Assembly (NCBI GenBank): GCA_963816145.1
Contig: CAWFJP010000005.1
Location: 320,001 to 384,000, forward strand
Direction of reading: 5' to 3'
DNA from: an uncultured delta proteobacterium
Lineage (GTDB): Bacteria > Desulfobacterota > Binatia > UBA9968
DNA length: 64,000 bases
The first letter of the stretch is position 1. Each line of letters opens with the position of its first letter. Of this stretch, positions 11,061 to 57,200 are shown one piece after another. The notes below the pieces were generated by a model that saw only the letters and a program-made list of their open reading frames with translations, had not been told where the DNA came from and did not search any database. Position numbers and translations under genes: made by a program.

Positions 11061-12041
11061 CTATCGTTTCGTGGCCAATTCTTTGGCGGCTACGGCGGAC
11101 AGTGAAAAATCGAAGATTGTCGCCGCTGGCAGGTCGGCGTTCAGCCCTGCGGTGGCGGCGAGCATGGCGATGTAGGCTTTGCTTTGTTCCGGTGTCGGCA
11201 CGCCGTCGCGGGAGTAGGTGTCTTTGACTGACTCATAGGCCTTGAGCGCTTGACCTGGAGTGAGCGCCATCCATTTGCCGATCAAGGCTGTGGCGTCCTC
11301 CCGCTGGTTGGCCGTGTATTGCAAACCATCGATGGCGGCCTTGAGCACTTCAATAACTTCGCCGCGGCTGGTTTTGATTTTTTCATCGGTGGCGGCGAGA
11401 CCGGCTTGGGGAATTTGCAGCAGGGTGCCCATTTGAATCAAGCGCTTGAGCCCCATCTCTTCGCCTTTGATATCGGCCGGGGCGGCGATGATGGCGGCCT
11501 CGGCAAGGCCTTTCTGCACGGCGATCAAACGGTCGATGGATGATGGCGCGTTAATGATCGTAGTCTTGGGGCCGAGTTTGTAGCGATCGATGAGGAACTG
11601 GATCTCATAAGCGACCAGATTACCGAAACCGCTGCCGGCGATTTTCTTTCCCGTCAAATCGGTCACCGCATTGACTTCAGGGCGCACTACTAAGCTGTGT
11701 TGCAGTTTCACCGAGGCGAAGTGAATGACTTTTGCCGGTGCGCCGCGGGCAGCCGCGGTGGCGATGGTGCTGGGAATGATCGTGTAATCCACCGAGCGGT
11801 TGAGCAGCGCCGCCGCCGTCAAGCTCGGGGCCATCTGAATCAGCTCGACGTCGAAACCGCGGCGAGCGAAGAAGCCTTTCTGCACCGCGGCGTAGATTGG
11901 AAAGTAACTGAGCGATGGAGCGGCGGTGGCGATGCGAATCTTGGTGCGCGGTGCATCGGCGGCGAAGAGCGATGATGTGGCCGGCGGAGCCGCGAAGAAG
12001 AATTGACCGGATAGGACCAAAAGGACCGCTAATCGAATCAT
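11061..12041 (-). CDS. ABC substrate-binding protein, NMT1/SsuA-like
   Basis: Signal peptide from ATG 12041 (GGAG RBS); AVQKGFFARRGFDVELI. Confidence 0.85.
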   Translation of the reverse strand: MIRLAVLLVLSGQFFFAAPPATSSLFAADAPRTKIRIATAAPSLSYFPIYAAVQKGFFARRGFDVELIQMAPSLTAAALLNRSVDYTIIPSTIATAAARGAPAKVIHFASVKLQHSLVVRPEVNAVTDLTGKKIAGSGFGNLVAYEIQFLIDRYKLGPKTTIINAPSSIDRLIAVQKGLAEAAIIAAPADIKGEEMGLKRLIQMGTLLQIPQAGLAATDEKIKTSRGEVIEVLKAAIDGLQYTANQREDATALIGKWMALTPGQALKAYESVKDTYSRDGVPTPEQSKAYIAMLAATAGLNADLPAATIFDFSLSAVAAKELATKR

Positions 12042-12087
12042 ATTATCTCCAGAGGTCTTTATAGAAGCTTGGATCGGATAGTCGTAA

Positions 12088-13092
12088 TTAGCGAAACAGT
12101 TTCTGGAATTCTTGCCGTTTTTCGGCGTAAAACGATTCGCCGAGATCATCCATTTCGACGAACTTGATCTTGTCGGCGTCGGGTACCGGCGGGTAAACGC
12201 CTTTGCGGTTTACGAACTCGCCGGCCTTGGCCATGAGGTTCATGCTCTCATCGTCGAGGAAAAAGTCGATGAAGGCCCGGGCGGCATTAGGATGGGGCGC
12301 CTTGTGGAAGATCGACATGTAGCTGGCGTCACCCAAGAGCCGATAGTCGCCGCGCACGTAATCTACCGGCGCGCCTTTCTGGCCGTTCAAGAACACATAA
12401 TAGACGTAAGTGATACCGATAGGGGTTTCGCCGGTGGTGATGCGGTCGGCCGCGGGTCCGAAGGATTCGACGAGCACGGGCTTCATCGCCGCTAGGTCGC
12501 GGATGAATTTATCCGATCTGTCTTTGCCCATGAGCTTGGGCAAATTCGCTAGCCATTGAGCGGTCGTGGTATGCAGCGTCGGGTCGGCCATGACCAGCTT
12601 GCCGCGGAATTGCGGTTTGACCAAATCTTCCAATGACTTTGGCGCGTCGGCGGGTTTGATCGCGCTTTTGTTGTACATCACGCCGACGATGTGATTGCGC
12701 GCGCGCGGACCGAGCTGGGGATCGATGGCTTCTTTCGGAAAATCCTTGCTCATCGGTGACTCATATTTTGCCAGGATGCCTTCCTTGAGCATGATGCGTT
12801 GGGTGTCTTCGGTGGACATCACCAGATCGAAGAGCGCCTTGCCGGCGCGCGCTTCAGTCAAGGCGCGTTCCATCACTTTGGTCGCCGAGGTGCGCCAATA
12901 GTCGATGGCCACGCCGGTTCTTTTCTGAAAGGATTTTTGCAGCAGCTCAAAAATATCCGACTGCATCGTGCCGTAGACGATCAGCTTGCCGTCTTTCTTC
13001 GCGGCCTCGATGAGTTTGACGTCTTGGGCGAAGGCTGGAGTCAGCCACGGCAAGCAAAAAACCAATAGTGTCAGGTTGCGGAAACGCTTCAC
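12088..13092 (-). CDS. Extracellular solute-binding protein (Fe3+/thiamine-type)
   Basis: AAKKDGKLIVY, YNK...APKSLEDL, APHPNAARAFIDF. Confidence 0.85.
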   Translation of the reverse strand: MKRFRNLTLLVFCLPWLTPAFAQDVKLIEAAKKDGKLIVYGTMQSDIFELLQKSFQKRTGVAIDYWRTSATKVMERALTEARAGKALFDLVMSTEDTQRIMLKEGILAKYESPMSKDFPKEAIDPQLGPRARNHIVGVMYNKSAIKPADAPKSLEDLVKPQFRGKLVMADPTLHTTTAQWLANLPKLMGKDRSDKFIRDLAAMKPVLVESFGPAADRITTGETPIGITYVYYVFLNGQKGAPVDYVRGDYRLLGDASYMSIFHKAPHPNAARAFIDFFLDDESMNLMAKAGEFVNRKGVYPPVPDADKIKFVEMDDLGESFYAEKRQEFQKLFR

Positions 13093-14578: not shown

Positions 14579-15664
14579 ATGGCACGCAACGGAATCCCCG
14601 TCGTCGATGGCGACGGTCATGTGATGGAAGATTGGGACGGGCTTTTGCAATATATGCCGGAGCCGTACATCAAGAGCGGCCGCTTCAAGGGTCGGATTTT
14701 CCCGCCGCTGGATCATCTACATGGGGCGACGCTCTATACGCTGGTGCCCGGCGCGTTCCGTCCGGTGCGCGAAGATGGCTGGTTGGAGTTTATGGAAGAT
14801 GTCGGCATCGAGCGGGCGGTGCTGTACAGCACGGGTGGGCTGGCCTTTGGCAAGGTTATAACCCGTGAATTCGCCGTCGACGTGGCGCGGGCGTGGAACA
14901 ACTGGTTCGCCGACACTTACTTGAAAAAAAGCCCGCGCTTTCAGGGGCTGGCCTTGGTGCCGCTGCAAGAACCGGCGGAAGCGATTAAAGAAATGCGCCG
15001 CGCGGTCAATGAACTGAAATTCTGCGGCGTCATGCTGCCATCCACCGGCTTCAAGGGCCATTTGGGGGATAAGGAATACTGGCCGTTTTATGAAGAAGCG
15101 AGCAAACTCGGCTGCTGTATCGGTATTCATGGCGGCGCCCACGAGGGACTGGGAATGGATTGGCTTACGCCCTACGCACCGATCAATGGTTTGGGCCATG
15201 CGATTGGCCAGATGGTGGCGTTTGCCGGCTTGGTCTTTAACGGAATTTTTGAAAAGTATCCCAACGTCCGCGTCGGTTTCATGGAAGCCGGGGTGTCGTG
15301 GTTGCAAACATGCTTAGAGCGCTTCGACCGCGGCTGGGAAACCCATATCCAGTACGATCCGCGCGGCGAATATCTGCAGCTCAAGCCTGGCGAAAAAGTC
15401 AGCGACTATATCCGCCGCCATGTCGAAGCGGGGCGCATCTTCGTCGGCTGTGAAGGTACCGAGAAAGGGCTGCATCATTTAGTTGAGGCGGTTGGCAATA
15501 AGCCATTCATGTTCTCCAGCGACTTTCCCCATGAAGTGAATAACGAATACTGCAAGCACGAGATCGAAGAAATCATCGAGAACGAGCATCTCACCGATGA
15601 CGATAAGCATGCGGTGCTGCATCGCAACGCGGAACGGTTTTACGGTCTGAAGCCGCTGGGGTGA
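14579..15664 (+). CDS. Amidohydrolase-2 family protein
   Basis: VDGDGH, RAWNNW, IGIHG, MEAGVSW, FSSDFPH; start ATG 14579 after GGAGGG. Confidence 0.9.
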   Translation: MARNGIPVVDGDGHVMEDWDGLLQYMPEPYIKSGRFKGRIFPPLDHLHGATLYTLVPGAFRPVREDGWLEFMEDVGIERAVLYSTGGLAFGKVITREFAVDVARAWNNWFADTYLKKSPRFQGLALVPLQEPAEAIKEMRRAVNELKFCGVMLPSTGFKGHLGDKEYWPFYEEASKLGCCIGIHGGAHEGLGMDWLTPYAPINGLGHAIGQMVAFAGLVFNGIFEKYPNVRVGFMEAGVSWLQTCLERFDRGWETHIQYDPRGEYLQLKPGEKVSDYIRRHVEAGRIFVGCEGTEKGLHHLVEAVGNKPFMFSSDFPHEVNNEYCKHEIEEIIENEHLTDDDKHAVLHRNAERFYGLKPLG

Positions 15665-15697
15665 TACGGCGAGCGGAGTGAACCGTCTCTGAATCAA

Positions 15698-15740
15698 TCC
15701 GTGCGGGGTTTTTGGATCTACCGGTCTGAGCCCCGCGCGG
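15698..15740 (+). terminator. GC-rich stem-loop after amidohydrolase
   Basis: CCGTGCGGGGTTT ... GAGCCCCGCGCGG; no clear U tract. Confidence 0.4.
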
Positions 15741-15838
15741 TTGCCTAACAATATTAATTCTCCGAGCCGCTCTTTAACTCCCCATCACTCCTGGTTAAAT
15801 TCATAGTCAGTCATAGCTCTATTTTCGGAGTTGAATTT

Positions 15839-16948
15839 ATGGACATGCCGATGTCCGGCGATATTTTCCCTGCCAGGCAAGCGATTGAGATGATCGACCA
15901 GGTCGATCTCTCTCTTCCCATTGAGATTCCCGCCGTGCCGCTGGAGTCCGACCCGGATAATGTGCCGCCCGCGGATCATCGCGCGCTGTTAGCGGAAGTT
16001 GCCGCGCTCAAGAAAGCAAAGAACGCTTATATTCTGGCCCATAATTATGCGCCGCGCGATATTCAGGATGTCGCCGATGCGGTGGGCGATTCGCTCTACC
16101 TGGCGCAGCAGGGTGCCCAGTCCGACGCCGACGTTTTGGTTGAAGCGTCGGTGCTGTTCATGAACCAGATCCTGGCGATTATGAAAAAACCGCGACAGCG
16201 GGTGTTGGCGCCGGATCCGGGTGCGCTCTGTTCCTTGGCGGCGCATGCCGACGCAGGTAAAATTCGCCAGTGGCGGCGCGATCACCCGGACGGCATTGTC
16301 ATCAGTTACGTGAATACGTACTTGGATGTAAAAGCGGAAAGCGACTACTGCTGTGCCTCGGCCAACGCGGCCAAAGTCGTGCTGTATGTCTTGGAACATT
16401 CGCGCCCGAGCCAACCGCTGCTGTTTCTTCCCGATCTCTATCTTGGTTTTTACGCGGCAAAGCTGTTGGAGCAACAGAAGCAGTCCGTTGACCGGCTCTG
16501 GCTGATGATGGGCGCTTGTCATGTGCATGACCGGATCCGGCCGTATCATGTCGAGCAGCAACGCAAGCTCTATCCCGATGCGGCGGTGGTGGTTCATCCC
16601 GAGTGTGGCTGCACCAGCGCCTGTATGCGCCAGATGGCGCAGGGTAAAACGCCGGCGGATATGATGCAGTTCCGCTCGACGCAGGGTATGGTGCAGTTCG
16701 TCCGCGACACACCGCAGCAAGTCGTGATCATGGCCACCGAGGTGGGTAACATTTATCCGTTGTCCAAAGCTGCGCCCGGGAAGACGATCGTGCCGGCGAG
16801 CGCTGAAGCGGTGTGCGCATTCATGAAGCAGAACACATTGCGCAAATTACGTGACTCGCTGCGCGATGGCGTGCACGAAATTAAAGTCGATGCCGAGTTG
16901 GCGGCGCGGGCGCGGCTGCCGATCGAGCGGATGTTGAGTATTTTGTAA
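15839..16948 (+). CDS. nadA: Quinolinate synthase NadA
   Basis: ILAHNY, GDSL, CSLA, YVNT, FLPD, CHVH, HPEC, GST-equivalent RST, CAFM: three Fe-S Cys present. Confidence 0.9.
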   Translation: MDMPMSGDIFPARQAIEMIDQVDLSLPIEIPAVPLESDPDNVPPADHRALLAEVAALKKAKNAYILAHNYAPRDIQDVADAVGDSLYLAQQGAQSDADVLVEASVLFMNQILAIMKKPRQRVLAPDPGALCSLAAHADAGKIRQWRRDHPDGIVISYVNTYLDVKAESDYCCASANAAKVVLYVLEHSRPSQPLLFLPDLYLGFYAAKLLEQQKQSVDRLWLMMGACHVHDRIRPYHVEQQRKLYPDAAVVVHPECGCTSACMRQMAQGKTPADMMQFRSTQGMVQFVRDTPQQVVIMATEVGNIYPLSKAAPGKTIVPASAEAVCAFMKQNTLRKLRDSLRDGVHEIKVDAELAARARLPIERMLSIL

Positions 16949-32584: not shown

Positions 32585-32703
32585 GCGGAATAGTTATTGA
32601 ATTTACAAACAAGCACGCCCTTTCTCTGCGGTCAATTGACAAGCGCTCTTTGCCCAATTACATCTCGTACAGTCGAGGGATATCTAACGGAATGCCGGGA
32701 GCT

Positions 32704-33690
32704 ATGAGCATGACTGTTCGAACATTGGTCGGTATCGCCATTCTGGTTTTGCTCAGTTCGGTCGACCTGAGCGCGCAAAGCCGCAAGGTGCGGGTGGCGA
32801 TGCCGGGCTACACCATCGCCGGGATTTCATTTCTTACCGCGAAGGTCAACGGCTACTACGCCGCCGAGGGCTTGGATGTGGAGCTGATCGCCATGCGCGC
32901 GCCGACGGCGAATCTCGCCGTGCTGAGCAGCAGCGTGGAGTTCTCCACGGTGCCTTTGGCTGGATTGAATACGGCGCTGCGCGGCGGCGCATTGAAGATC
33001 GTCATGGTCCACTTCGACAAGCCGCAGCATGTGTTGTTTGTCAAGAATGACCTGCAAAATCTAAAACTCTTGCGCGGCAAAAAAGTCGCCGTGTCCGGGC
33101 CGGGAGTGATCGACGACTTGCTGTTGCGTGAAGTGCTGGGAAATAACGGCATCGATGCCAACAAAGAGCTGGCTATTCTCAGCATGGGTTCGGCGGATAC
33201 CCGGGTGACCAGCTTGATCAGTGGCGCGGTGGACGGAGCGATGATCATCGCTCCGCATACTTTTACCGCCAAGGACGCGGGCTTTCGCGAATTGGTGGTG
33301 TTTCGCGACCAGGGTTTGCTCTTGCCGAGCGGCGGTATCGCGGCACGGGACGAAACACTGAAAAACGATCCGGGTTTGGTGGAGCGCTTCACGCGCGCGT
33401 CGATGATGGGGTTCATCCACTCGCGCGATAACCGCGCCGGCGCGATCCGGGTTCTTAGCAAGACGTTAAGGATCGACGAGACGATCGCCGCGAAAGTATA
33501 CGATTCGTCGCGACCGACGATGACGGCCGACGGCACGCTCAGTGACGATGCACAAAAGAAAATGGCTGCTTTTGTCGCTAAGTCTGCCGGCCTTAAAGAA
33601 ATCATAGCGGCGGACAAGGCCTTCGATTTCTCGTTTGTACGCAAGGCTAACGCTGCGTTGCACACCAAAGGCTGGCAGCCGCTGCCGTGA
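32704..33690 (+). CDS. ABC substrate-binding protein, NMT1/SsuA-like
   Basis: Signal peptide; AKVNGYYAAEGLDVELI, LRGKKVAVS; TTGACA-17-TACATC at 32636-32664 favours a start near 32704. Confidence 0.85.
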   Translation: MSMTVRTLVGIAILVLLSSVDLSAQSRKVRVAMPGYTIAGISFLTAKVNGYYAAEGLDVELIAMRAPTANLAVLSSSVEFSTVPLAGLNTALRGGALKIVMVHFDKPQHVLFVKNDLQNLKLLRGKKVAVSGPGVIDDLLLREVLGNNGIDANKELAILSMGSADTRVTSLISGAVDGAMIIAPHTFTAKDAGFRELVVFRDQGLLLPSGGIAARDETLKNDPGLVERFTRASMMGFIHSRDNRAGAIRVLSKTLRIDETIAAKVYDSSRPTMTADGTLSDDAQKKMAAFVAKSAGLKEIIAADKAFDFSFVRKANAALHTKGWQPLP

Positions 33691-33739: not shown

Positions 33740-35014
33740 ATGCAACTGACACTGGCCTATCACCCGGTTAGCTCGATTCGCTTCGGCGCTAAATTGAATT
33801 TGGACGGCACGGTGCTGACGGTTAGCCAAGACGAATTGCGCGCCATTGTTCTCGAAGACTCGCTGATCGAAGCGGTGGACTTCGCCCTCGCCGCGCCCAA
33901 CGACAGCCTGCGCGCCGGGCCGGTGTTCGATATCGTCGAGCCGCGCGCCAAGGCGGCGGTCGGCAGCCCGGACTGGCCGGGGATTCTCGGTGCGCCGCAG
34001 ACCGCCGGCAGCGGCACTACGCATGTGCTGTCCGGTGCGGCAGTGACCATGCTGCGTGAGGACTCTTCCGGTGATTCGCGCGGCGCCACTGGTTACGTCC
34101 TCGAAATGAGCGGCGCGCCGGCGGCGGGCTCGCATTACGGCACGCTGCGGCATTTGATCGTCGTACCGCGTACTCGGCCGAATATTCCGGCGGCCGCGCG
34201 TCAGCGCGCTTACCGTTTAGCGCAATTGAAAATGGCTGTGCGACTGGCACAGGCGGCTTTTTCTGTCGTACCGGCGCGATCCGAAGTCCTCGATAACGCG
34301 GATGCCGAGCCGCGCGCCGGCTTGCCGCGGCTGGCTTACATTGGTCAAATCTTTTCACGTCAGCGCAAACCGGAAGCCGATGAGCATATACTTTACGGCA
34401 CTGACACCGACGGCATGCTGCCGACCCTCCTCCATCCCAACGAGTGGCTCGACGGCGCGTTGGTGCCGTCGTACCACGCGTCAATCGGTGGCGCAGAAAC
34501 CTATTTTTATCAAAATCATCCAGTGATTCTCGAACTCTACCGGCGCCATCGCGCGGGTGAAATAAATTTCATCGGCTCGGTGGCGACGATAGCCTCGGCC
34601 AATAATTTCGACCGCGAACGCAACACGCGCTTTGCGGCCAATCTTACTAAATGGGCACTGCGCGCTGATGCCGCAGTGCTGACCAAGTTCGGCGGCGGCG
34701 TGCCGCACACGGATTTGTCGGAGACCGCGCGCGTACTCGAAACCATGGGTGTCAAGACCGCCGTGCAGGTTACGGATCTCGCGCGCGACCACCGGATCGA
34801 GTCGGCGCTATTGTTCAACTTCCCCGAGGTCGACGCCATCGTCTGCATCGGCGGCAACGACACCCACTGGAAGCTGCCGCAGGTCGAGCGCGTGATCGCG
34901 GCCAGCAGCGGCCTGGCGGAGTTGCTCGCCGGCCCGTTGGAGATCGACTCGCTCAATGTGATCGGCGTCGCCAACCAGCAAGGGGCGTCGCGATTGAAGT
35001 CGGTGGTGTATTAA
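33740..35014 (+). CDS. Glycine/sarcosine/betaine reductase component B non-Sec subunit (GrdE/GrdG/GrdI-like)
   Basis: DIVEPRAK, AGSGTTHVLSG, PTLLHPNEWLDGA, TY.YQNHP.I.ELY, DAIV..GN; adjacent to grdB-like gene. Confidence 0.85.
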   Translation: MQLTLAYHPVSSIRFGAKLNLDGTVLTVSQDELRAIVLEDSLIEAVDFALAAPNDSLRAGPVFDIVEPRAKAAVGSPDWPGILGAPQTAGSGTTHVLSGAAVTMLREDSSGDSRGATGYVLEMSGAPAAGSHYGTLRHLIVVPRTRPNIPAAARQRAYRLAQLKMAVRLAQAAFSVVPARSEVLDNADAEPRAGLPRLAYIGQIFSRQRKPEADEHILYGTDTDGMLPTLLHPNEWLDGALVPSYHASIGGAETYFYQNHPVILELYRRHRAGEINFIGSVATIASANNFDRERNTRFAANLTKWALRADAAVLTKFGGGVPHTDLSETARVLETMGVKTAVQVTDLARDHRIESALLFNFPEVDAIVCIGGNDTHWKLPQVERVIAASSGLAELLAGPLEIDSLNVIGVANQQGASRLKSVVY

Positions 35015-35108: not shown

Positions 35109-36380
35109 ATGCGTGTCGTACATTACGTCAATCAATTTTTCGGTGGGCTCGGCGGTGAAGAACACGCAGGAAATGCGCTTGAAATTCGCGATGGTGCGGT
35201 GGGGCCGGGCAAGTTGCTGGAACAACTCTTTGGCAACGACTGCCAAGTGGTGATGACGTTGGTCTGCGGCGATAACTACGCTGTGGAGAATCTGGAGGCG
35301 TTGACGGCCGCTGTATTGGAAAAAATTCGCGCTGCCCAGGCCGATCTGTTTGTCGCCGGGCCATGCTTTCTAGCGGGGCGATACGGCCTGGCGGCGGGGG
35401 CGCTGTGCGCGGCCGCGCAGGCGACATTGAAAATTCCCGTCATCACCGCCATGGCGGCGGAGAATCCCGGCGCCGATCTCTACCGCGAGTTCATGTATAT
35501 CGTCGACTCCGGTGACAATAGCGCTAAGATGCGCGAGGTGTTGACGCGAATGGCGGCCATGGCACAGAAGCTCATGCGTCATGAGATCATCGGCAGCCCC
35601 AAGGATGAAGGCTATCTCGTGCGCGGATTGATCCGCGATGAATTTGTCGAGCTATCCGCCGGCCAGCGCTTGGTCGATATGGTGCTCAAGAAAGTGCGCG
35701 GCGAGCCCTTCGAGAGCGAAATGAGTCCGACCACCTTCGCGCCGGTACCGAAGCCGCCGGCGATCGCCGATCTGACAAAAGCCAAGGTGATGCTGGTTAC
35801 CGACGGCGGGCTGGTGCCGAAGGGCAATCCAGACAAGATCCAGGGCTCGGCGGCGACTCGCTGGGGCGTGTACAGTGTCAAAGGTTGCCAAGATTTGGAT
35901 GGCGCCGACTACGAGATCTCCCACGGCGGCTATGATCCGCAGTTCGTGCGCCAGGATCCGGATCGGCTGGTGCCGCTGGATGTCATGCGCGAACTGGAAC
36001 GGGAGGGCGTCATCGGCGAGTTGCACGAAGAGTTTATTTCCACTTCGGGTCTGTCTAATCCATTGTCGAACACCCGGCGCATGGGACGGGAGATGGCAGC
36101 CAAGGCGAAGCAGCTGGGCATCGACGCGATCATTCTGACTTCAACGTGAGGCACCAGCACTCGCAGCGGCGCTGCGATCACTACGGAATTGGAAAAGGCC
36201 GGTATTCCCACGGTGCAGATTACCGCCGCGTTGCCCGTGGCGAAGATGGTCGGCGCCAATCGGTTGGTGCTCGGCAATGGTATCGTCCATGTGGTGGGCG
36301 ATGCCAAGGTATCGAAAGAGGACGAAAAGAAGCTGCGGCGCCGCTTGGTGGAGCAGGCTCTCGCGGCGATGCAAAAGTAA
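35109..36380 (+). CDS. grdB: Glycine/betaine/sarcosine reductase family selenoprotein B (Sec at TGA 36147-36149, residue 347; 423 aa)
   Basis: MRVVHYVNQFFGGLGGEE, AGP.F.AGRYG, VP.GNPD, HGGYD, DPDRLVPLD, ILTST-U-GT; in-frame continuation to TAA 36380. Confidence 0.92.
36161..36177 (+). promoter_or_regulatory. Bacterial SECIS-like hairpin
   Basis: TCGCAGC-GGC-GCTGCGA, perfect 7-bp stem with G-first loop, 11 nt after the TGA. Confidence 0.82.
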
Positions 36381-37907: not shown

Positions 37908-38951
37908 TCATTTTCCGGTGTAGATTTCTTTGACGAAGCCGGAACTCTCCAACTCTTGAAGTAAGCGGTTGTCGTAGAAATCCTTGGGATTGGCCGCGGC
38001 GGCTTTGGGGTGGTCGGTCACCGAAAGCGCGGCTCGGATGGCGTCATCGGTGACGTACGGCACCCGTGGAAACAGCTGGGCAAAGCTGCGGTAGGCTTCG
38101 TCGATGATTTCTTGATCTTTTGACGCGAGATATTTGCCGATGGCGCGCTTGGAAATATCCGGCTGCTCGATCGACAGTTTCAACCCGACCACCATCGCTT
38201 TTAGAAATCCCCGCACGACATCGGGACTTTGCTGGATCGCCGAACGGCGCACGGCTAATCCCATGAATGGATAGGGCAGCTTGAGCGCGCCGATGTTGAC
38301 CAGTTCCTTGAAGCCCAAGCGGCGCGCCATCAACGTCGTCGGCGCCGAGTGGACCGCGGCTTGGACGATGCCTTGATTCAACGCCGCCAGCGCGTCTTCC
38401 TGGCGCGAGAAGTAGAGTACCTTCATATCCTGCTGGGTCATTTTGTATTGTCTCAAAAGGGCGATAGCGGCATGGTCGGAAGACGCGCCTTTGGTGATGA
38501 CGCCGAGCACTTTGCCGCGCAGGTCGGGCACCTCTTTGATCTCCGGACGGGCGTACAAAGAAAACGCATAGGTCGCCACCGGCATGCCGACATAAATAAA
38601 CTCGGCGCCGCTCAACATGGCGTTGACCGCCGCGCCGCCGGTCATGGCGATATCGACCGCGCCGGACAGCATCGATTGCGTCAAGCGGACGCCGCCGGGG
38701 ATGTAGACGGGCTTGATGTCAAGGTTGTATTTCTGATCGATCTTGCTGTCGGCGATGTTCCACAGCGGCGTCTGGCCGCCGTTCAGTTGCGGGTAGCCGA
38801 CGCGGATCGTCGTCGGCGCGGCGGCGTGGAGAGAATTGGCCGCAAAGAGCGCAAAGGTCGCAAAAAATATTGCCATAACAAGACTGCTCAACAATTTTGA
38901 TGATACCATGAGTTGTGGAGCCCCCCGCGGTTTGGCGTTGCGATTGTTCAC
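37908..38951 (-). CDS. ABC substrate-binding protein, NMT1/SsuA-like
   Basis: IRVGY, DLRGKVLGV, FYDNRLL; exact start uncertain. Confidence 0.85.
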   Translation of the reverse strand: MNNRNAKPRGAPQLMVSSKLLSSLVMAIFFATFALFAANSLHAAAPTTIRVGYPQLNGGQTPLWNIADSKIDQKYNLDIKPVYIPGGVRLTQSMLSGAVDIAMTGGAAVNAMLSGAEFIYVGMPVATYAFSLYARPEIKEVPDLRGKVLGVITKGASSDHAAIALLRQYKMTQQDMKVLYFSRQEDALAALNQGIVQAAVHSAPTTLMARRLGFKELVNIGALKLPYPFMGLAVRRSAIQQSPDVVRGFLKAMVVGLKLSIEQPDISKRAIGKYLASKDQEIIDEAYRSFAQLFPRVPYVTDDAIRAALSVTDHPKAAAANPKDFYDNRLLQELESSGFVKEIYTGK

Positions 38952-39030
38952 TGACTACTTAGCAGGAAAATCCTATCTCGACAAAGCTCTTGTCGGAGAG
39001 TGCGGGTCTGGAGTATTGGTGGACATCGCC

Positions 39031-40056
39031 ATGGCATACAAGATCAAGATCATGTTCACCACGAGGGACACGAAGATCACGAAGGGTTTCGTTGCGGTTT
39101 TTACCGCGCTTCTCTTCATAGGTGGATTCAGACCGGCTAACGCTTTGGACAATGTGCGCGTTGCGACCGCTTCACTGACTTCACCGTCGATTCTCTACCT
39201 CCTAGTCGCCCAGAAGGAGGGTTACTTCAAGAACGAAGGACTCAACGTCGAGATCCTCAACATTCGCGGCGAGCTCGCCGCGAAGATCACGTCGGTCGGT
39301 GAAATCGATTTCTTTACTCAGGGATTTAGCGGTTTGAACGCGGCGGTGCGAGGCTTGCAGCTCAAAGTTATCATGGTCGTCGACGAGAAGCCGGACTGGG
39401 ATTTTATCACCCAGCCGCAGATCAAGACTTTTGCGCAACTGAAAGGCGGCGCCGTCGGCATCCTTTCCATCGGCGGCACGGTCGCGGTGGTGACCCGCGA
39501 GATGCTGCGGCGCAATAACCTGGACCCGGCGAAGGATGTCAACTTGATGGTTATGGGCGGCAACGACATGCGCTTCATCTCGCTCAAGGGCAAAGTGATC
39601 GGGGCCACGCTCCTGGACGCCGCCAATAGTTATCGCGCGCAGAAAGATGGCTTCTACAAATTGGCGGCGGCTAGTGATTACGTGAGCGAGTATATGAGCG
39701 GCGGGATCGTCACTTCGACGGAACGGATCAAGCAGGCCCCGGATAAGGTCGCCCGCTTCATGACCGGCGCCCTCAAGGGTTACCTATTCTTTACCACGCG
39801 TCGCGAACCATCGATCAACTACATGATGCAATTCTTGAAGACCAAGGATAGGGAAGCGGTCAGCGCGATTTACGACGCCAGCGTGAAAGTCATGACCCGG
39901 GACGGCATGATTGAGGAAAAGGTGCTGCAAGCCGTGATCGATGAAGCCCAGCGTGGCGCTGGAGTGAAAAAGGATGTTCGCACCGCGGATTATTTCGACT
40001 TCAGTTTTCTACGGAAGGCGCGGGAGCAATTGAGGGTGAGCGGGTGGAAGCCGTGA
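39031..40056 (+). CDS. ABC substrate-binding protein, NMT1/SsuA-like
   Basis: Start ATG 39031 or 39052; VAQKEGYFKNEGLNVEI, QLKGGAVG, YFDFSFL. Confidence 0.85.
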   Translation: MAYKIKIMFTTRDTKITKGFVAVFTALLFIGGFRPANALDNVRVATASLTSPSILYLLVAQKEGYFKNEGLNVEILNIRGELAAKITSVGEIDFFTQGFSGLNAAVRGLQLKVIMVVDEKPDWDFITQPQIKTFAQLKGGAVGILSIGGTVAVVTREMLRRNNLDPAKDVNLMVMGGNDMRFISLKGKVIGATLLDAANSYRAQKDGFYKLAAASDYVSEYMSGGIVTSTERIKQAPDKVARFMTGALKGYLFFTTRREPSINYMMQFLKTKDREAVSAIYDASVKVMTRDGMIEEKVLQAVIDEAQRGAGVKKDVRTADYFDFSFLRKAREQLRVSGWKP

Positions 40057-41468: not shown

Positions 41469-41969
41469 TTAGATCGGTCCGTCGAGGCGCCAGGATTTAC
41501 CCACCAGCCGCGCGATCGGCGGAACTTGATCATCGATGTGCGCGGCGACCGCCTGGCCGACGAAAAGATATAAGCCTTCGACTTCCATTTCCTTGACGAG
41601 CTTGCACTCAACGTTGGCGTGGCAACCCTTGACCAGCGGCGCCTGCACGACTTTGGCCGGCAGGGTTTCTAAGCCGAGGGCGACAAATTTGTCGTCGACG
41701 TCGCGACCGGACATGTCGCGGCTTTTGTCGACGGCCCGCAGTTGCTCGGTGGAACAAACGTTGACGACGAATTCTCCGCTTTTCTGGATCACTTCGCGGC
41801 TGAAATTCTTGTCTTGAATGCCGATCATTAGGAGCGGCGGTTCGTCGCCGATCCCGAGAGCGCGAAAGGCAAACTGCACGTTGCGCTTGCCCTGGTGGGC
41901 GGTGGAGATCAAATAGAGGCCGGTGGGTGTGACCCGATAGGCGTTCTTTAGATTGAGTTCTTTGAGCAT
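41469..41969 (-). CDS. Flavin reductase-like (FMN-binding split barrel) protein
   Basis: PP.LMIGI, SGEFVVNV, SGRDVDDKF, APLV..C..NVECK, LFVGQ. Confidence 0.8.
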   Translation of the reverse strand: MLKELNLKNAYRVTPTGLYLISTAHQGKRNVQFAFRALGIGDEPPLLMIGIQDKNFSREVIQKSGEFVVNVCSTEQLRAVDKSRDMSGRDVDDKFVALGLETLPAKVVQAPLVKGCHANVECKLVKEMEVEGLYLFVGQAVAAHIDDQVPPIARLVGKSWRLDGPI

Positions 41970-41987
41970 GGATTCTCCCGGGTCTGT

Positions 41988-42824
41988 TTATTTGCGTTCG
42001 CTACCGAGTCTTTTGTACCAGCTTTCGGTCGCGGCCGATTCCTTTTGCCGTGCGAAGAAGTCGCGGTCCGTGCCTTGACGTTTCAATTCAAGCAGCATTT
42101 CTCGCGCGGCGTTGGTGGCGGCAAGCGGAATGCTCGACGGCGTGAGTGCAATGCGAAAGCCGAGGGCGAAAAATTCCGCCGCGCTTATTTGCGCTTTGGG
42201 CCAAAGCGATACGATTGGTGTGCGGATGCGGGCGCCGACATGGCGGAAGTCGGCGATATCGGTTAGTTGGACGCCGACCGCGTCGGCTCCGGCCGCAGCA
42301 TATGCGGTCATTCTTTGACAAACTTGATCGAGCGATTCTTTCGGTCGGGAATCGCAACGGGCGATAATGACGAAGGCTGGATCGCGCCGGGCATCGACAG
42401 CGGCTTTGATCTGGTCGACCACCGTGACAGTCGGCGCAATCGCCAGCTCCTCGGGTGCGGCGCCGTACTCATTGACCGCTGCGTCTTCGAAACGGACCGC
42501 CGCCGCGCCGGCGCGCTCGTAGAGCTTTAGCGCTCGGGTCAGTGCGATGGTTTCGGCGCAGATCGATCCGCCGTCGACAATCAGCGGAATGTCGGTGGCC
42601 TCCGAAACCTGGCCAATGCGCTGGGCGACTTGTGTCGTGGTCAGAAGATTGCGGTCGGGCAGGCAAAAGTTTTTGTGAATGGCATTGCCGGAGAGGTGCA
42701 CGGCGCTGTAGCCGCAGTCCTGCGCCAGTCGCGCGAATAGCGCGTCAGTGACACCGGGAGCGATGGCGCCCTTTGGATCATTGAGTAGCTCGCGCAACCG
42801 GGCGCGTTTCTGTTGATCGTTCAT
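41988..42824 (-). CDS. Isocitrate lyase/PEP mutase family protein (degenerate active site)
   Basis: APGVTDAL.A, LSG, LPD, PLIVD, FED, IIARCD, YAAAGADA. Confidence 0.8.
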   Translation of the reverse strand: MNDQQKRARLRELLNDPKGAIAPGVTDALFARLAQDCGYSAVHLSGNAIHKNFCLPDRNLLTTTQVAQRIGQVSEATDIPLIVDGGSICAETIALTRALKLYERAGAAAVRFEDAAVNEYGAAPEELAIAPTVTVVDQIKAAVDARRDPAFVIIARCDSRPKESLDQVCQRMTAYAAAGADAVGVQLTDIADFRHVGARIRTPIVSLWPKAQISAAEFFALGFRIALTPSSIPLAATNAAREMLLELKRQGTDRDFFARQKESAATESWYKRLGSERK

Positions 42825-42835
42825 TTTGATTCGAT

Positions 42836-43666
42836 TTACTCCATGCCGTCGGTGATGAATTGGATGACGTAGCCCGCGGGGTCGTCCATATACGTGCCGC
42901 CACGGTCGGCGCTCGGCTCCTTGGCCGCGCCGCGGTCGCCGTTTTCAATGGCCAATTTGGCCAAGTGTTCGATGGCCTCGGACCATTTGGCTGTAGGTAC
43001 ATAAAAAGCAATATGGGGTCCGGGGACTTTTCGGCTCATCACGAGACCTTTCGAGGCGAACGGCGCTTTGGTCAGGATCAATGTCTGGCCGCTAGCCATC
43101 TTCAGGGTGGCTTGTTTACCGTCGGCGCTACGGCTTTGCACCTCGAAGCCGAGAACGTCGTGATAGAATTTGATCGACGCTTCGACATCCGGAGCTTCCA
43201 GCTCGATATAGCCGACGCCGGTCATGCGGCCCGTGGCCGCGCTCGCGGCGGTGTTGACATCTTTCGGTAAATACACTGCGTAATGATTTCCAGCCGGGTC
43301 GGTAAAGAAAACTGTTTGCGCTGCGAATGGATGGCTATTTCCGACCGGCCCCGTGTAACTTACACCGAGCTGATTGAGGTCGGCTGCGAGTTGATCTAGC
43401 CCAGATTCCGTGGTCGTGAAGGAATAGGTCGGCAATCCGCGCGGACTACTCGGGCTTGGCCGGTCATCGCTTTGAAGGTAGACGCCCATGCGTTTGCCAC
43501 CGATTTGAATAAACGTATGCGGCACCGCGCCGCGCTTGCGTTGACGCACGTTGAGACCGTTACGTTTCCCGAGTACCCCGCCAAAAACACGGGCATAAAA
43601 ATCCTCGGCGATGACGATATCATCGACGGGAACAACAAAATGATCGAGAGATTGAGCGATGGCCAT
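42836..43666 (-). CDS. Two-domain VOC/glyoxalase-family protein
   Basis: LDHFVVPVDD..AEDFY, FFTDPAGN, SIKFYHDVLGF, HIAFYV, YMDDPAG. Confidence 0.85.
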   Translation of the reverse strand: MAIAQSLDHFVVPVDDIVIAEDFYARVFGGVLGKRNGLNVRQRKRGAVPHTFIQIGGKRMGVYLQSDDRPSPSSPRGLPTYSFTTTESGLDQLAADLNQLGVSYTGPVGNSHPFAAQTVFFTDPAGNHYAVYLPKDVNTAASAATGRMTGVGYIELEAPDVEASIKFYHDVLGFEVQSRSADGKQATLKMASGQTLILTKAPFASKGLVMSRKVPGPHIAFYVPTAKWSEAIEHLAKLAIENGDRGAAKEPSADRGGTYMDDPAGYVIQFITDGME

Positions 43667-43715
43667 GAGTTACTCCTACTACCTATTACTGTTGCCAAAT
43701 GCCTATTGCCGCCGT

Positions 43716-44852
43716 TTATTCCGCTTGCAGCTGCTTCATAAACCAATCGGCGATATAGGTTCTGCGGTCGAATCTTTTTTGCCCATGGCCGACGCCGTCG
43801 AGCATGGAGCGGCCGGGGGAGTTGACGGCGTTATTGTAAAGATTCAGCGCGCCGCGCGGGTCCATGACGCGGTCGTCGATGCTGTAACCGACTAACAGGG
43901 GACACTCGATTTTGTCGGCGCGGCCGATGAGGGTGAACTCCTTGATGTTCTCACGTGCATCCTTCAAGTCCTTCGCCCCCATGAGCCAACGCAGTCGGTC
44001 TTGGATCGGCGGATAGTAGTCGAAGATGTCGTCGACGAGATTATAAGCGCCGCTCCAAACCGCGACGGCTTTGATTCTTTTCTCGACTGTGGCGCAGCGC
44101 GGGCCGGAATAGCCACCCATGCTGGAGCCGTGCAGGCCGATACGGTTGGCATCGACATCGGCGCGGGTGACGAGATAGTCGATCACCGCCTTGGCGACTC
44201 GATCCGAGTCCGGTGGCGCGTAGAGTTTGAGGTGGCGCAAAGTGCCGCCATGGCCGGGGCCGTCGACATCGATAAACGACATGCTGCGGCGGACATATTG
44301 TCCGGCGCCGCCATCTTCGCCGCGCAAGAGGATGCCGTCGGCGCCGCCGTAGTTATAGACCACCGGCAGTTTGCTCCCAGGCATGCCGCGCCCGGGCCAG
44401 AACAGCGCGGGCAGTTTATGGCCTTCATAAGGGATCTCCACCTGTTCGAAGGGCGCTGGCACCATGTTCCAGGCTTTAGCAAAGTTCTCTTCCAGTTTCT
44501 TGTAGGTTGGCAGCATGCGCGGGTCGGTCTCCGGCATATGGACCACGGCGCGGCGGTAAAAGTCGGCGGCGCGCAAGTAGAATTCGTGAGCGGTGACCTT
44601 GCGACCTTGTTGCTCGAAGCCGGCGGCAAGCTCTTCATTTTTCTTGGCGGCTTCGGTCCACTCTTTGTGCCAGCTTTCGAGATTGAAAAACTTTACGCGC
44701 CGGGCGACCCCGCGAACATCCGGATCCGGATGATCCGGAGAAACTTCCATGCGCACGTCGAGTTGACCGCCGCCCGGCAACCCCTTGGCGGGATAGAGAA
44801 AAATTTCGGCTTGTTGGCGGTCGAAAACATCGCCGCCGGTTTTGTCGGCCAT
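43716..44852 (-). CDS. Alpha/beta hydrolase, FrsA / 2,6-dihydroxypseudooxynicotine hydrolase-like
   Basis: W..EW..AA, YLRAA..Y, VEIPYEG, GGADG, DGPGHG, GSSMGGY, C-terminal H. Confidence 0.85.
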   Translation of the reverse strand: MADKTGGDVFDRQQAEIFLYPAKGLPGGGQLDVRMEVSPDHPDPDVRGVARRVKFFNLESWHKEWTEAAKKNEELAAGFEQQGRKVTAHEFYLRAADFYRRAVVHMPETDPRMLPTYKKLEENFAKAWNMVPAPFEQVEIPYEGHKLPALFWPGRGMPGSKLPVVYNYGGADGILLRGEDGGAGQYVRRSMSFIDVDGPGHGGTLRHLKLYAPPDSDRVAKAVIDYLVTRADVDANRIGLHGSSMGGYSGPRCATVEKRIKAVAVWSGAYNLVDDIFDYYPPIQDRLRWLMGAKDLKDARENIKEFTLIGRADKIECPLLVGYSIDDRVMDPRGALNLYNNAVNSPGRSMLDGVGHGQKRFDRRTYIADWFMKQLQAE

Positions 44853-54276: not shown

Positions 54277-57200
54277 ATGTGGGATTTTATTAAAAAGATT
54301 GTCGGCACTAAAAATGACCGCGAGATCAAACGTATTCGTCCCTACGTTGATGAAATCAATAAACTCGAGCCGGAATACCAGCGGCTGAGTGACGGCGAAC
54401 TCAGAGCGAAAACCGATCAGTTCAAGCGCCTGCTCGCCGAAGCTACGGCGACTTTGAAAAGCGAGTTGGAGGAAAGCCAAAATCGCGCGAGTGTCGCCGA
54501 ACCCGAGGAGCGCGAGGAACTGAAAACTCAAGCCGAGGATCTCGACAAGGAACTACGCCGAAAAGAGGCGGAAATCTTAGATCAGCTCTTGCCAGAAGCT
54601 TTTGCCGCGGTGCGCGAGGCTTCGCGTCGCACCATCGGCCTGCGTCATTACGATGTCCAGTTGATCGGCGGTGCGGTGCTCCACTCGGGTAAGATTGCCG
54701 AGATGAAGACCGGTGAGGGCAAGACTCTGGTCGCGACCTTGGCGCTCTATCTCAATGCGCTCACCGGACGCGGCGTGCACTTGATTACCGTTAATGACTA
54801 TTTGGCGCGGCGCGATGTCCAGTGGATGGGGCCGATTTACCATAAACTCGGTTTGACCGCGGCGTCGATCGTTCATGAGGTCAGTTACCTTTTCGATCCA
54901 ACTTACCTGACTAAAGACTATCGTTTCATCAACCTGCGGCCGATCTCGCGCCAGGAAGCTTATCAGGCCGATATTACCTACGGCACCAATAACGAATTTG
55001 GTTTCGATTATCTGCGCGACAACATGAAGTTCTCCCTGGAAGAATATGTCCAGCGCGAGCTCAATTTCGTTGTCGTCGACGAGGTCGACAATATTTTGAT
55101 CGACGAAGCGCGCACGCCGTTGATTATCTCCGGGCCGGCCGAAGAGTCGACGGATAAGTACTACCTGATCGATCGAGTGATTCCCAAGCTTCAACGGGGC
55201 GCGGTGATCCAGGGCGATCCATCGCAGGAAGACCGCGCTGCCATCGAAGCCAAGGGCGATTACACGGTCGACGAGAAAAGCCGCTCGGTGACTTTGACCG
55301 AAACTGGTGTGGCCAAAGTTGAGCGGCTGCTTGGCGTTCACAATCTCTACGACCCGCGCCAGATCGATACGCTGCACCATGTGCAGCAAGCTCTCAAAGC
55401 GCACGCGATTTTTAAGCGCGATGTCGATTACGTCATCAAAGACGGCGAAGTGATTATCGTCGACGAATTTACCGGCCGTTTGATGCCGGGGCGGCGTTGG
55501 TCCGACGGTTTACACCAGGCGGTGGAGGCCAAGGAGCGCGTCCACATCCGCGAGGAAAACCAGACGCTCGCGACCATCACGATTCAAAACTACTTCCGCA
55601 TGTACAAGAAACTCGCGGGCATGACCGGCACGGCGGATACCGAAGCTCCCGAGTTTCAAAAAATCTATAAGCTGGACGTCACGGTGGTGCCAACCCATCG
55701 CAATATGGTGCGCCAGGATAATGCGGATGTGGTCTATCGCACCGACAAGGAGAAATTTGACGCCGTGGTTTTGGAAATTGAGGAGCGCCACAAGAAGGGA
55801 CAGCCGGTTTTAGTCGGCACGACTTCGGTGGCCAAGTCGGAGAAGCTGTCGCAACTGCTCAAGAAGAAAAACATCAAGCACAATGTTTTGAACGCGGTCA
55901 ATCATGAGGCTGAAGCGAGCATTATTGCTCAAGCCGGGCGCTACGGCGCGCTCACCATCGCCACTAATATGGCCGGCCGCGGTACCGACATCTTGCTCGG
56001 TGGAAATCCCGAATTTCTCGCCCGCTCGGATATGGAAAACGAATGGATCAACCGGGCATCGAAATTGCCGTTACAGGGCGCCGCCCGTTATGAGGACTCT
56101 CTGCGCGAATTGCGCGAGAAGTACGACGAGGAAGTCCAGCGGGCGGAGAAAAAGTTTCTCAAGGACAATGGGATCTTCGATCAGCAGCGCAGCGAATCCT
56201 TGAAGCGAACCACGGAGTTGCAGCGCGAGATCCGCGGCGCCTCGCCCTTCGCCGAGGCCAGAGAAAAGTACGAGGATGTCTCGGCAACCCAATTGATCGA
56301 GGCGCTGCACAGCTCGCGGCCGATTCCGGAAAGTTATTTGCGGGCGAAAAACAATTTCGAGGGGACGGTGCTCGCCGCGGCCGAAAGCCAATCGGTTGCC
56401 TTGCCGGATGAATTTATCGAAACCAAGAACGAGTTCGACGCCACGTTGGAACGCTGGCATCAAAAGCCCGAAGAACGCAATGACTTGATCGATTTGCTCG
56501 ACGAGAGGCGGCGAGTCTATGAACAGCGATTGATCGATCTGGAATTCGACCGCGCGAAGGCCGCTCTCGCTCGGGGTGAAATGGCCGCGACGGTTAATGA
56601 GTATGAGCAAGCGCACAGGGCATTCGAGGAGGCCGAGGTGCGCTGCGAGGAGATTCGCCTGCCCTACGAAAAAGCCATCCAGGATGCGCAACAAAACTAT
56701 GAAACCAAGCGCCAGGAATATCTGCGCATGGTCGAGGACATTCGCGAGCAGCTGGAAAAAGCGCCAGACGAATACCGTCAGCGGTTCGATGAGATGCTGG
56801 CGCGGTACAATACGGTTTGCGCCGAGGAAAAGGGAAAAGTGATCGCTGCCGGTGGCCTGCATATCCTTGGCACCGAGCGCCATGAAAGCCGGCGCATCGA
56901 TAATCAGCTGCGCGGCCGCGCCGGCCGCCAAGGCGATCCGGGCTCGTCGCGTTTTTATCTGTCCCTCGAAGACGATCTCATGCGTATCTTCGGCGCTGAC
57001 CGGATTCAAGGCATTATGAGCCGGTTGGGTATGGAAGACGGCGAGCCCATCGAGCACGGCCTGGTCACCCGCGCTATTGAGAACGCCCAGAAAAAAGTCG
57101 AAGCGCACAACTTCGATATCCGTAAGCACCTTTTGGAATATGATGACGTCTTAAACAAACAACGCGAGGTGATTTATGGTCATCGGCGCGAAGTCCTCAA

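Follow-up and report, generated by a model that had tools for sequence, protein, structure and literature searches.

A GrdB-family gene with UxxSxxS in place of UxxCxxC in an uncultured Binatia bacterium: a candidate subunit of a cysteine-poor, GrdD-less reductase

The stretch of DNA analysed here (the window; 64,000 nucleotides, positions 320,001 to 384,000 of contig CAWFJP010000005.1, assembly GCA_963816145.1, from an uncultured delta proteobacterium of the Binatia) contains a gene of the GrdB family, the selenocysteine (Sec) subunit of protein B in Grd-type reductases, in which both cysteines of the UxxCxxC site are replaced by serines. Judged by its sequence, the gene is a Sec-decoding member of the family and not an artefact. 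The UxxSxxS form is ordinary for its lineage and differs from the textbook enzyme in three connected respects, the loss of the two cysteines being correlated with the absence of GrdD and with the loss of the Asn-Cys site in the GrdE-type partner subunit. We estimate a probability of roughly 0.6 that the gene encodes the substrate-specific subunit of a cysteine-poor, GrdD-less Grd-type reductase, in which a GrdB-like and a GrdE-like subunit would together make up protein B.

The UxxSxxS site and its recoding hairpin

The following features define the gene and its active site; the hairpin is the selenocysteine insertion sequence (SECIS).

35109..36380, plus strand: GrdB-family selenoprotein B gene encoding 423 residues, Sec347 among them; the coordinates include the TAA stop (36378-36380)
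36147..36149, plus strand: UGA read as selenocysteine, U347; TGA occupies the same column in all 85 aligned homologues
36156..36158, plus strand: Ser350 (AGC), position +3, replacing the first Cys of UxxCxxC
36165..36167, plus strand: Ser353 (AGC), position +6, replacing the second Cys; its A (36165) is paired with T 36173
36161..36177, plus strand: SECIS hairpin with a 7-bp stem (36161-36167 with 36171-36177) and a GGC loop, starting 11 nucleotides after the UGA

The open reading frame (ORF) 35109-36149 terminates at a TGA, and when this codon is read as U the frame remains open to the TAA at 36378-36380. The readthrough translation contains ...ILTSTUGTSTRSGAAIT..., the motif being encoded at 36138-36170 by ACT TCA ACG TGA GGC ACC AGC ACT CGC AGC GGC (TSTUGTSTRSG). 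The protein matches PF07355 (Pfam GRDB) with 436.9 bits against a cut-off of 22 and, over residues 2-422, TIGR01918 (glycine/betaine/sarcosine/D-proline family reductase selenoprotein B) with 480 bits against 65.45. The equivalog cut-offs are missed for GrdB (TIGR01917, 443.2 vs 602.2 bits), for the sarcosine reductase GrdF (NF040794, 483.8 vs 800 bits) and for the betaine reductase GrdH (NF040795, 433.7 vs 775 bits), and UGTSTRSG stands where GrdB, GrdF and GrdH have UxxCxxC. The selenocysteine machinery, namely tRNA-Sec, selA and selB, is encoded in the host genome.

The hairpin, with the stem strands UCGCAGC and GCUGCGA, is supported by an alignment of 54 nucleotides around the UGA in 85 sequences, 76 of which are distinct. 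Stem positions are paired in 95.7% of the cells, compared to 85.8 +/- 0.9% after shuffling (0 of 500 shuffles as high), and when the pairing partners are slid along the alignment 14.8-61.1% of the cells are paired. The pair that involves the first base of the +6 codon (25-33 in alignment A2) is AU in 49 of the distinct rows, UA in 26, GC in one and unpaired in none; the AU rows combine Ser AGC with Ala GCU, the UA rows combine Cys UGC with Ala GCA, and the single GC row, a paralogue from the host genome, combines Gly GGC with Ala GCC. Thus, the A-U/U-A swap in the stem shows the residue change compensated by a synonymous change of the alanine codon, and by this alignment the hairpin is kept through compensatory changes while the flanking Cys codons became Ser. 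An earlier note, made from the letters of this DNA alone, had argued against a sequencing error on the grounds that the A of the second AGC pairs with a T in the SECIS stem, and the constancy of the 36165-36173 pair supports this argument. The predicted fold energy of 76 nucleotides is no better than that of shuffled sequence (z = -0.15), so that the support for the hairpin comes from covariation, not from energy. The Rfam model SECIS_4 (RF01990), the consensus of which spells the Cys form, aligns from end to end (model positions 1-38) with 36150-36187 and shows the same inner stem, at a score of 12.8 bits (E = 4.9) that falls below the gathering score of 38.

Spread of the UxxSxxS form and its Grd partners

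Relatives were sought in contigs of one genome per species, and the best 80 of 499 confirmed relatives were each read through the TGA. The motif is UxxSxxS in 52 of these loci, UxxCxxC in 20 (one of them, L091, read by eye), UxxSxxC in six and UxxDxxC in one, and one locus ends before the motif; leaving out L019, from a genome (G002) flagged as unpublished, UxxSxxS accounts for 51 of 78. The replacement of UxxCxxC by UxxSxxS, as first read in the earlier note, is confirmed, both in the window sequence and by the identical motif in 52 of 79 loci. The titles of the UxxSxxS entries name Binatia, 'delta proteobacterium', Dehalococcoidia/SAR202, Thermodesulfobacteriota, Nitrospinota, Verrucomicrobiia and Acidiferrales, i.e., at least six phyla, and the proteins are 55-87% identical to the window protein. 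Together with two copies from the host genome, the 52 loci yield the 54 UxxSxxS sequences considered below. In the codon tallies, which cover 66 loci as the ORF heuristic dropped 14 of the 80, the +3 serine is encoded by AGC in 46 cases, AGT in four and TCC in two, and the +6 serine by AGC in 47 of 47; AGY serine codons are one step from TGY cysteine codons.

In a quick IQ-TREE phylogeny (LG+G4, 85 proteins, motif columns kept, unrooted), all 54 UxxSxxS rows lie on one side of a branch, so that one label change is enough, the exact branch being weak; this agrees with the clade that the earlier note proposed to look for. A clade consisting of these rows and one Dehalococcoidia UxxSxxC row has a support of 99 in the Shimodaira-Hasegawa-like approximate likelihood ratio test (SH-aLRT) and is nested within a clade of 61 rows (SH-aLRT 95), the lower branches of which are UxxSxxC forms. 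The branching order in this unrooted tree suggests that the first Cys was lost first and the second one later.

Environmental data agree with the motif. Assembled contigs from two independent soil metagenome runs span it with zero differences at either Ser codon, an agreement at the level of contigs, to which rare variants would be invisible. The stretch, whole or in part, occurs in rows from 17 studies of soil and wetland metagenomes, with 17 rows holding at least half of its sampled words. A contig from RNA run X18 that covers 36132-36181 was considered as evidence of transcription and rejected: it has two differences and is unlike the window upstream, and so comes from a relative. Among 301 genomes sampled from the GTDB phylum of the host, the exact DNA pattern for UGTSTRSG occurs in the host genome only and the exact canonical pattern in seven; given that an exact pattern misses codon variants, this survey says only that the distribution is 'patchy'.

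None of the characterised types shows the variant. In print, UxxCxxC is given as the rule for GrdB/F/H (PMC6778437, which cites Wagner et al., 1999, for grdBFH; PMC13188914). An NCBIfam scan of 37 proteins places nine over the GrdF cut-off and seven more over the GrdB cut-off, 16 of 16 with UxxCxxC; five UxxSxxS representatives and the five other paralogues from the host genome score over the generic TIGR01918 only. There is no GrdH among these 37 proteins, and GrdH was sought in 301 genomes of a clostridial class, where six proteins exceed the GrdH cut-off and two fall just below it, all eight reading UGTCTRCG. Thus, all 22 GrdB/F/H sequences at the equivalog level are canonical, as the earlier note had maintained in ascribing a TSTUGTCTRCG-type site to GrdB-type proteins, and the variant, which it wanted compared with the characterised GrdB/F/H, is found in 0 of the 22. 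A full-text literature search, in which most subscription papers and supplements were beyond reach, retrieved no publication that describes either a GrdD-less system or a clade with conserved UxxSxxS. The only printed precedent found is the GrdB homologue FarB, which is said to lack the post-Sec CxxC (PMC10838667).

The partners of the UxxSxxS proteins are those expected of a Grd system, with one absence. The host genome carries a single grdA (contig C2, 212428-212859, 175.4 bits) with one in-frame TGA and the motif CFVU, and grdA is present in 46 of the 50 UxxSxxS genomes (45 of 49 when G002 is omitted). Where GrdA was read, CxxU is kept in 26 of 31 loci (CFVU in 25, CFAU in one); in the remaining five, the heuristic took other frames in three and found nothing in two. 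GrdC (NF040746) exceeds its cut-off in 31 of 31 UxxSxxS genomes, and its gene adjoins grdA wherever both are located. Matched coordinates put the grdC-grdA pair no more than about 4 kb away from the UxxSxxS gene in 17 genomes (G009, G015, G017, G018, G029, G032, G035, G036, G037, G038, G040, G041, G044, G045, G047, G048 and G050). A pattern search of the 3-kb flanks, on which this count does not rest, detects grdA in one of 52 UxxSxxS loci, grdA mostly lying just outside the flanks. Five Dehalococcoidia genomes (1.8-2.1 Mb) have no full-length GrdB homologue other than the UxxSxxS gene, which is located beside grdC-grdA. These counts do not support the idea in the earlier note that UxxSxxS is tied to the loss of grdA or to a different acceptor. 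GrdD (NF040747, E <= 1e-10) is detected in none of the 31 UxxSxxS genomes and in none of three UxxSxxC genomes, and exceeds the cut-off in 13 of the 15 genomes with canonical loci; in the host genome, the best GrdD match scores 20.3 bits vs a cut-off of 350.

The second correlated loss concerns the other subunit of protein B, which in the window is encoded by the gene preceding the GrdB-like one.

33740..35014, plus strand: GrdE-family partner (protein B alpha subunit), reading DGALVPSYHAS with no Asn-Cys self-cleavage site; PF09338, 243.1 bits

A GrdE-like gene is located directly upstream in 79 of 81 loci. In an alignment of 79 partners, those of canonical proteins read DGAIVSGNC(V)..CDK, with the Asn-Cys site in which, according to PMC9908766, the Cys becomes the pyruvoyl group. 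The partners of UxxSxxS proteins read DGA.V[PT]SY.. with no Cys at the cleavage site; three partners (L051, L054 and L057) have Cys in the Ser column, and those of the small Dehalococcoidia genomes have Cys one place before it. The Asn-Cys site is present in 0 of the 8 GrdE-like genes of the host genome. The GrdI proteins encoded beside GrdH equivalogs read SGSF at the cleavage site, and in this respect the partner of the clade looks like the unprocessed betaine-reductase subunit GrdI.

Proposed function and competing readings

As reportedly set out by Andreesen in 2004, protein B binds the substrate and cleaves its alpha-carbon bond, which leaves the carboxymethyl group bound to GrdA as a selenoether; a Cys of GrdA itself is said to resolve the selenoether, and thioredoxin to re-reduce GrdA. 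In the clade, Sec347 would be the nucleophile that cleaves the alpha-carbon bond of a bound substituted acetate, and the carboxymethyl group, together with the redox work, would then pass to selenoprotein A. Since GrdA keeps CxxU, it could resolve the intermediate itself, and since it brings the resolving Cys, the CxxC of GrdB would be unneeded for turnover. The cysteines of canonical GrdB would then be protective, not catalytic, and dispensable in the clade, where Ser350 and Ser353 may hydrogen-bond the selenolate or Cys86 may stand in. The printed view (PMC6778437 and PMC10838667) is that the post-Sec cysteines serve 'to protect against accidental oxidation' of Sec.

With a partner that has no pyruvoyl Cys and a GrdI-like site, a betaine-like or other non-Schiff-base compound appears likelier than glycine as the substrate. 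The substrate is probably not glycine given the absence of the pyruvoyl Cys, the glycine-GrdB and GrdF motifs (PMC9751293) that are unmatched by eye, and the failing equivalog scores; a betaine-like or other alpha-substituted acetate is our guess. The presence of GrdC in all and of GrdD in none of the 31 genomes suggests that the acetyl group probably does not exit as GrdD-made acetyl phosphate, and another route for it is a matter of speculation. Because both the pyruvoyl Cys and GrdD are missing, the clade is probably a so far uncharacterised reductase whose substrate and product both differ. The literature takes the cysteines after Sec as an obligatory feature of GrdB-type enzymes, and here a large, conserved clade lacks them beside a normal selenoprotein A; the clade would show them to be unneeded for the core chemistry and provides a natural test of their role. 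Its hosts belong to abundant uncultured groups (Binatia, SAR202/Dehalococcoidia, Nitrospinota), and because gene callers split such genes at the stop codon and Rfam SECIS_4 misses the SECIS, they are under-annotated in metagenomes. As a tentative extension, on which we would not rely, the UxxSxxS system could be a thiol-poor, more oxygen-tolerant Stickland-type reductase for betaine-like or other alpha-substituted acetates in soil and ocean bacteria outside the strict anaerobes, in which interchangeable protein-B modules (six in this genome) would feed one GrdA-GrdC pair and acetyl would be released without acetyl phosphate, e.g., from a GrdC thioester.

Several points weigh against the main reading of the gene as a subunit of a GrdD-less reductase. 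The host grdA-grdC genes are on a contig (C2) other than that of the UxxSxxS gene, and all six GrdB-like paralogues of the host share the single grdA. Just upstream of grdA, grdC is spread over three frames (locus L128, 7814-8245, 8274-8855 and 8662-9156), which match positions 3-123, 159-288 and 287-440 of the NF040746 profile, and grdC is split in the closest relative (G008) as well; this may reflect a defective complex in the host or an error of the assembly. The absence of GrdD is the result of one profile (NF040747) applied to mostly incomplete genomes. In the available parts of the papers (PMC6778437, PMC10838667 and PMC13188914), the roles ascribed to the canonical cysteines are opinions, not experiments. 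Two further points, a cysteine found throughout the clade and the sole protein B of the small Dehalococcoidia genomes, the latter of which would also fit glycine reduction with a serine-derived pyruvoyl group, belong to the alternatives that follow.

The first alternative is that the protective or resolving thiol has been relocated, Cys86 in an invariant AGPxFxAGRYG loop lying near Sec347 and taking over this role.

35364..35366, plus strand: Cys86 (TGC) in AGPCF, specific to the clade

All 54 clade rows have Cys at position 86, where all 20 canonical rows have Ala; position 96 shows the opposite arrangement, with Ala in 52 of the 54 and Cys in each of the 20. Both serine columns are clade-specific too, and that of Ser350 separates the same two sets, with Ser in all 54 and Cys in all 20. 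The nearest UxxSxxC sister (L079) already has Cys86. The proteins of the clade are otherwise poor in cysteine, with a mean of 3.6 besides Sec vs 6.9 in the canonical ones. In an AlphaFold2 model built from 34 sequences (mean predicted local distance difference test score, pLDDT, 92), a strand at 340-344 is predicted to be followed by Sec347 and then by a helix at 348-363 that would hold Ser350 and Ser353 in its first two turns; residue 86 is likewise modelled at the end of a strand before a helix, a usual place of active-site loops. Residue 86 belongs, however, to the N-terminal domain and Sec347 to the C-terminal domain, the exchange between positions 86 and 96 may be a buried structural one, and the other four paralogues of the host have neither Cys86 nor the full CxxC. 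A sequence search of the PDB gives no match below E = 0.35 and a Foldseek search of the PDB gives only generic matches to two-Rossmann-domain proteins (template modelling score about 0.2), so that there is no solved relative in which to place these residues. Taken together, a relocation of the thiol to Cys86 is rather unlikely. The earlier note had proposed a lone Sec with no local resolving Cys and a different mechanism; the loss of both local cysteines stands, a total lack of a resolving Cys is not established, given Cys86 in all 54 rows, and a different mechanism of Sec protection is possible.

Less probable still is a true glycine reductase, in which the conserved Ser of the partner (P/T-S-Y) would cleave its own chain and leave a pyruvoyl group derived from serine, as other pyruvoyl enzymes do. 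This would account for the UxxSxxS protein being the sole protein B in five small Dehalococcoidia genomes with grdA-grdC, and for the Cys that replaces the Ser in L051, L054 and L057, as would be expected if this residue were the nucleophile of a self-processing reaction; serpentinite studies (PMC9751293) name Dehalococcoidia homologues glycine reductases, which may not belong to the UxxSxxS clade. The same source gives the glycine-GrdB motif as AHGGxD[QTAP]..RV[IL]PxD..TxGNxTxV, against which the window protein reads SHGGYDP..RLVPLD..STSGLSNPL, not a match by eye. Also against glycine are the TIGR01917 score far under the cut-off, the resemblance of the partner's site to unprocessed GrdI, and the absence of GrdD, which is required for acetyl phosphate.

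A stand-alone redox enzyme that works with neither GrdA nor GrdC, for example a thiol-dependent peroxidase or another selenol redox protein, with grdA-grdC serving other paralogues, is quite improbable. Groebe et al. are said to have reported peroxidase activity of GrdB in 2007, the window has no grdA, grdC or thioredoxin gene nearby, and in complete Binatia chromosomes grdA-grdC is megabases away; but the GrdE-like gene directly upstream in nearly every locus and the adjacency of grdC-grdA in 17 genomes speak against it, and the small Dehalococcoidia have no other protein B for GrdA.

Finally, an artefact or a decaying gene, with the Ser codons as errors or the gene as a pseudogene (a genome paper, PMC6778437, called a B-component copy that has no UxxCxxC 'likely a pseudogene'), can be dismissed almost outright: frame errors do occur elsewhere in the assembly, in grdC and apparently at the C-terminus of the C8 paralogue, and the window SECIS scores below the Rfam threshold, but the motif is identical in 54 sequences of diverged proteins with compensatory stem changes, the frame is open over its full length, and contigs of independent runs agree.

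Known systems, paralogues and gene neighbourhoods

Among the known systems, the betaine reductase GrdH + GrdI of the Eubacterium/Peptoclostridium acidaminophilum type resembles the proposed GrdD-less reductase in being a two-gene module with the same position of Sec that feeds GrdA, and in having an alpha subunit with a Ser-aromatic sequence in place of the Asn-Cys site (SGSF in GrdI, PSY in the clade). It differs in that GrdH keeps UGTCTRCG in eight of eight sequences, the window protein falls far short of the NF040795 cut-off, and genomes with canonical loci carry GrdD. The clostridial pairs GrdB/GrdE and GrdF/GrdG share with the clade the families PF07355 and PF09338, the TSTUG core, the place of the SECIS (SECIS_4) and the partners GrdA and GrdC; unlike them, the clade has UxxSxxS, no pyruvoyl Cys, scores under the equivalog cut-offs and no GrdD, and its hosts are uncultured soil and ocean lineages outside Firmicutes. 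In the 'CxxC-derived' motifs CxxS and CxxT, as in monothiol glutaredoxins, a redox residue at the start of a helix has its partner Cys replaced by Ser, and the resolving thiol or selenol comes from another molecule. Their fold and chemistry are different from those of the clade, where Sec takes the first position and selenoprotein A is the proposed partner. The fluoroacetate reductase FarB/FarE of Cloacibacillus porcorum is similar in that, as stated in PMC10838667, FarB lacks the post-Sec CxxC and FarE is not a proprotein. The window partner scores 137.3 bits against the FarE cut-off of 675 (NF053623), and FarB is set beside the clade by description only. The Far system, as the same paper describes it, is encoded beside a radical S-adenosylmethionine (SAM) gene and an antiporter in an anaerobe with GrdCD.

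The host genome contains six full GrdB-like genes, each with one TGA and each beside a GrdE-like gene, with the motifs UGTSTRSG (twice), UGSSTRCG, UGSCSRGG, UGTCSRSG and UGTGTRSG, none of them canonical. The five other than the window gene (L002-L006), with the +3/+6 pairs S/S, S/C, C/G, C/S and G/S, are located as follows.

C31:463151-464416, GrdB-like gene
C8:46676-47881, GrdB-like gene
C27:56083-57351, GrdB-like gene
C29:95029-96312, GrdB-like gene
C4:430359-431627, GrdB-like gene

In the C8 paralogue (L003, UGSSTRCG), the last approximately 40 residues (GNPNYHRKKKNSS..., at about 2700-2823) depart from the family C-terminus GD..L..EK.LR, as a frameshift close to the 3' end would probably explain. 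The GrdE-like partner of the C27 paralogue (UGSCSRGG) consists of two ORFs, 54751-55329 and 55319-56017 (L016 and L017), split near profile position 170-173, and is either a naturally split subunit or the result of a frame error. A shorter, distant relative at C4:264246-264605 (L007) has its TGA within YUPFCH (UxxC), with second weak matches in four small Dehalococcoidia genomes; it probably belongs to a PrdB-like or other GrdB-related selenoprotein family.

Thioredoxin-fold proteins are encoded beside some grd clusters, namely a DUF255 protein next to grdC in a Binatia genome and an NrdH-like CPDC protein next to grdA in eight loci. Near the grd cluster of Binatia genome G015 (L130), there are matches to models of other (seleno)proteins, namely ArsS-type radical SAM (448.6 bits) and, weakly, ExtKL-like multihaem cytochrome (11440-12402 and 14899-16224), and selenoprotein genes may cluster near the grd genes of this genome.

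In the window, the GrdE-like gene is itself preceded by a transporter gene.

32650..33690, plus strand: NMT1/SsuA-like solute-binding protein, PF09084, 65.5 bits; directly upstream of the GrdE-like gene

This neighbour was considered as a clue to the substrate and rejected: the host genome has at least 150 NMT1/SsuA-like genes, so that adjacency to grd genes says little. This number comes from 150 scored out of 486 first-look candidates, at least 150 being over the Pfam cut-off, and the expansion includes further genes in the window (37908-38951 and 38836-40056) and another beside grdA on contig C2. Farther downstream, at 41469-44852 on the minus strand, there are genes of the flavin reductase, phosphoenolpyruvate (PEP)-mutase, glyoxalase-fold and alpha/beta hydrolase families, which are seemingly unrelated to grd.

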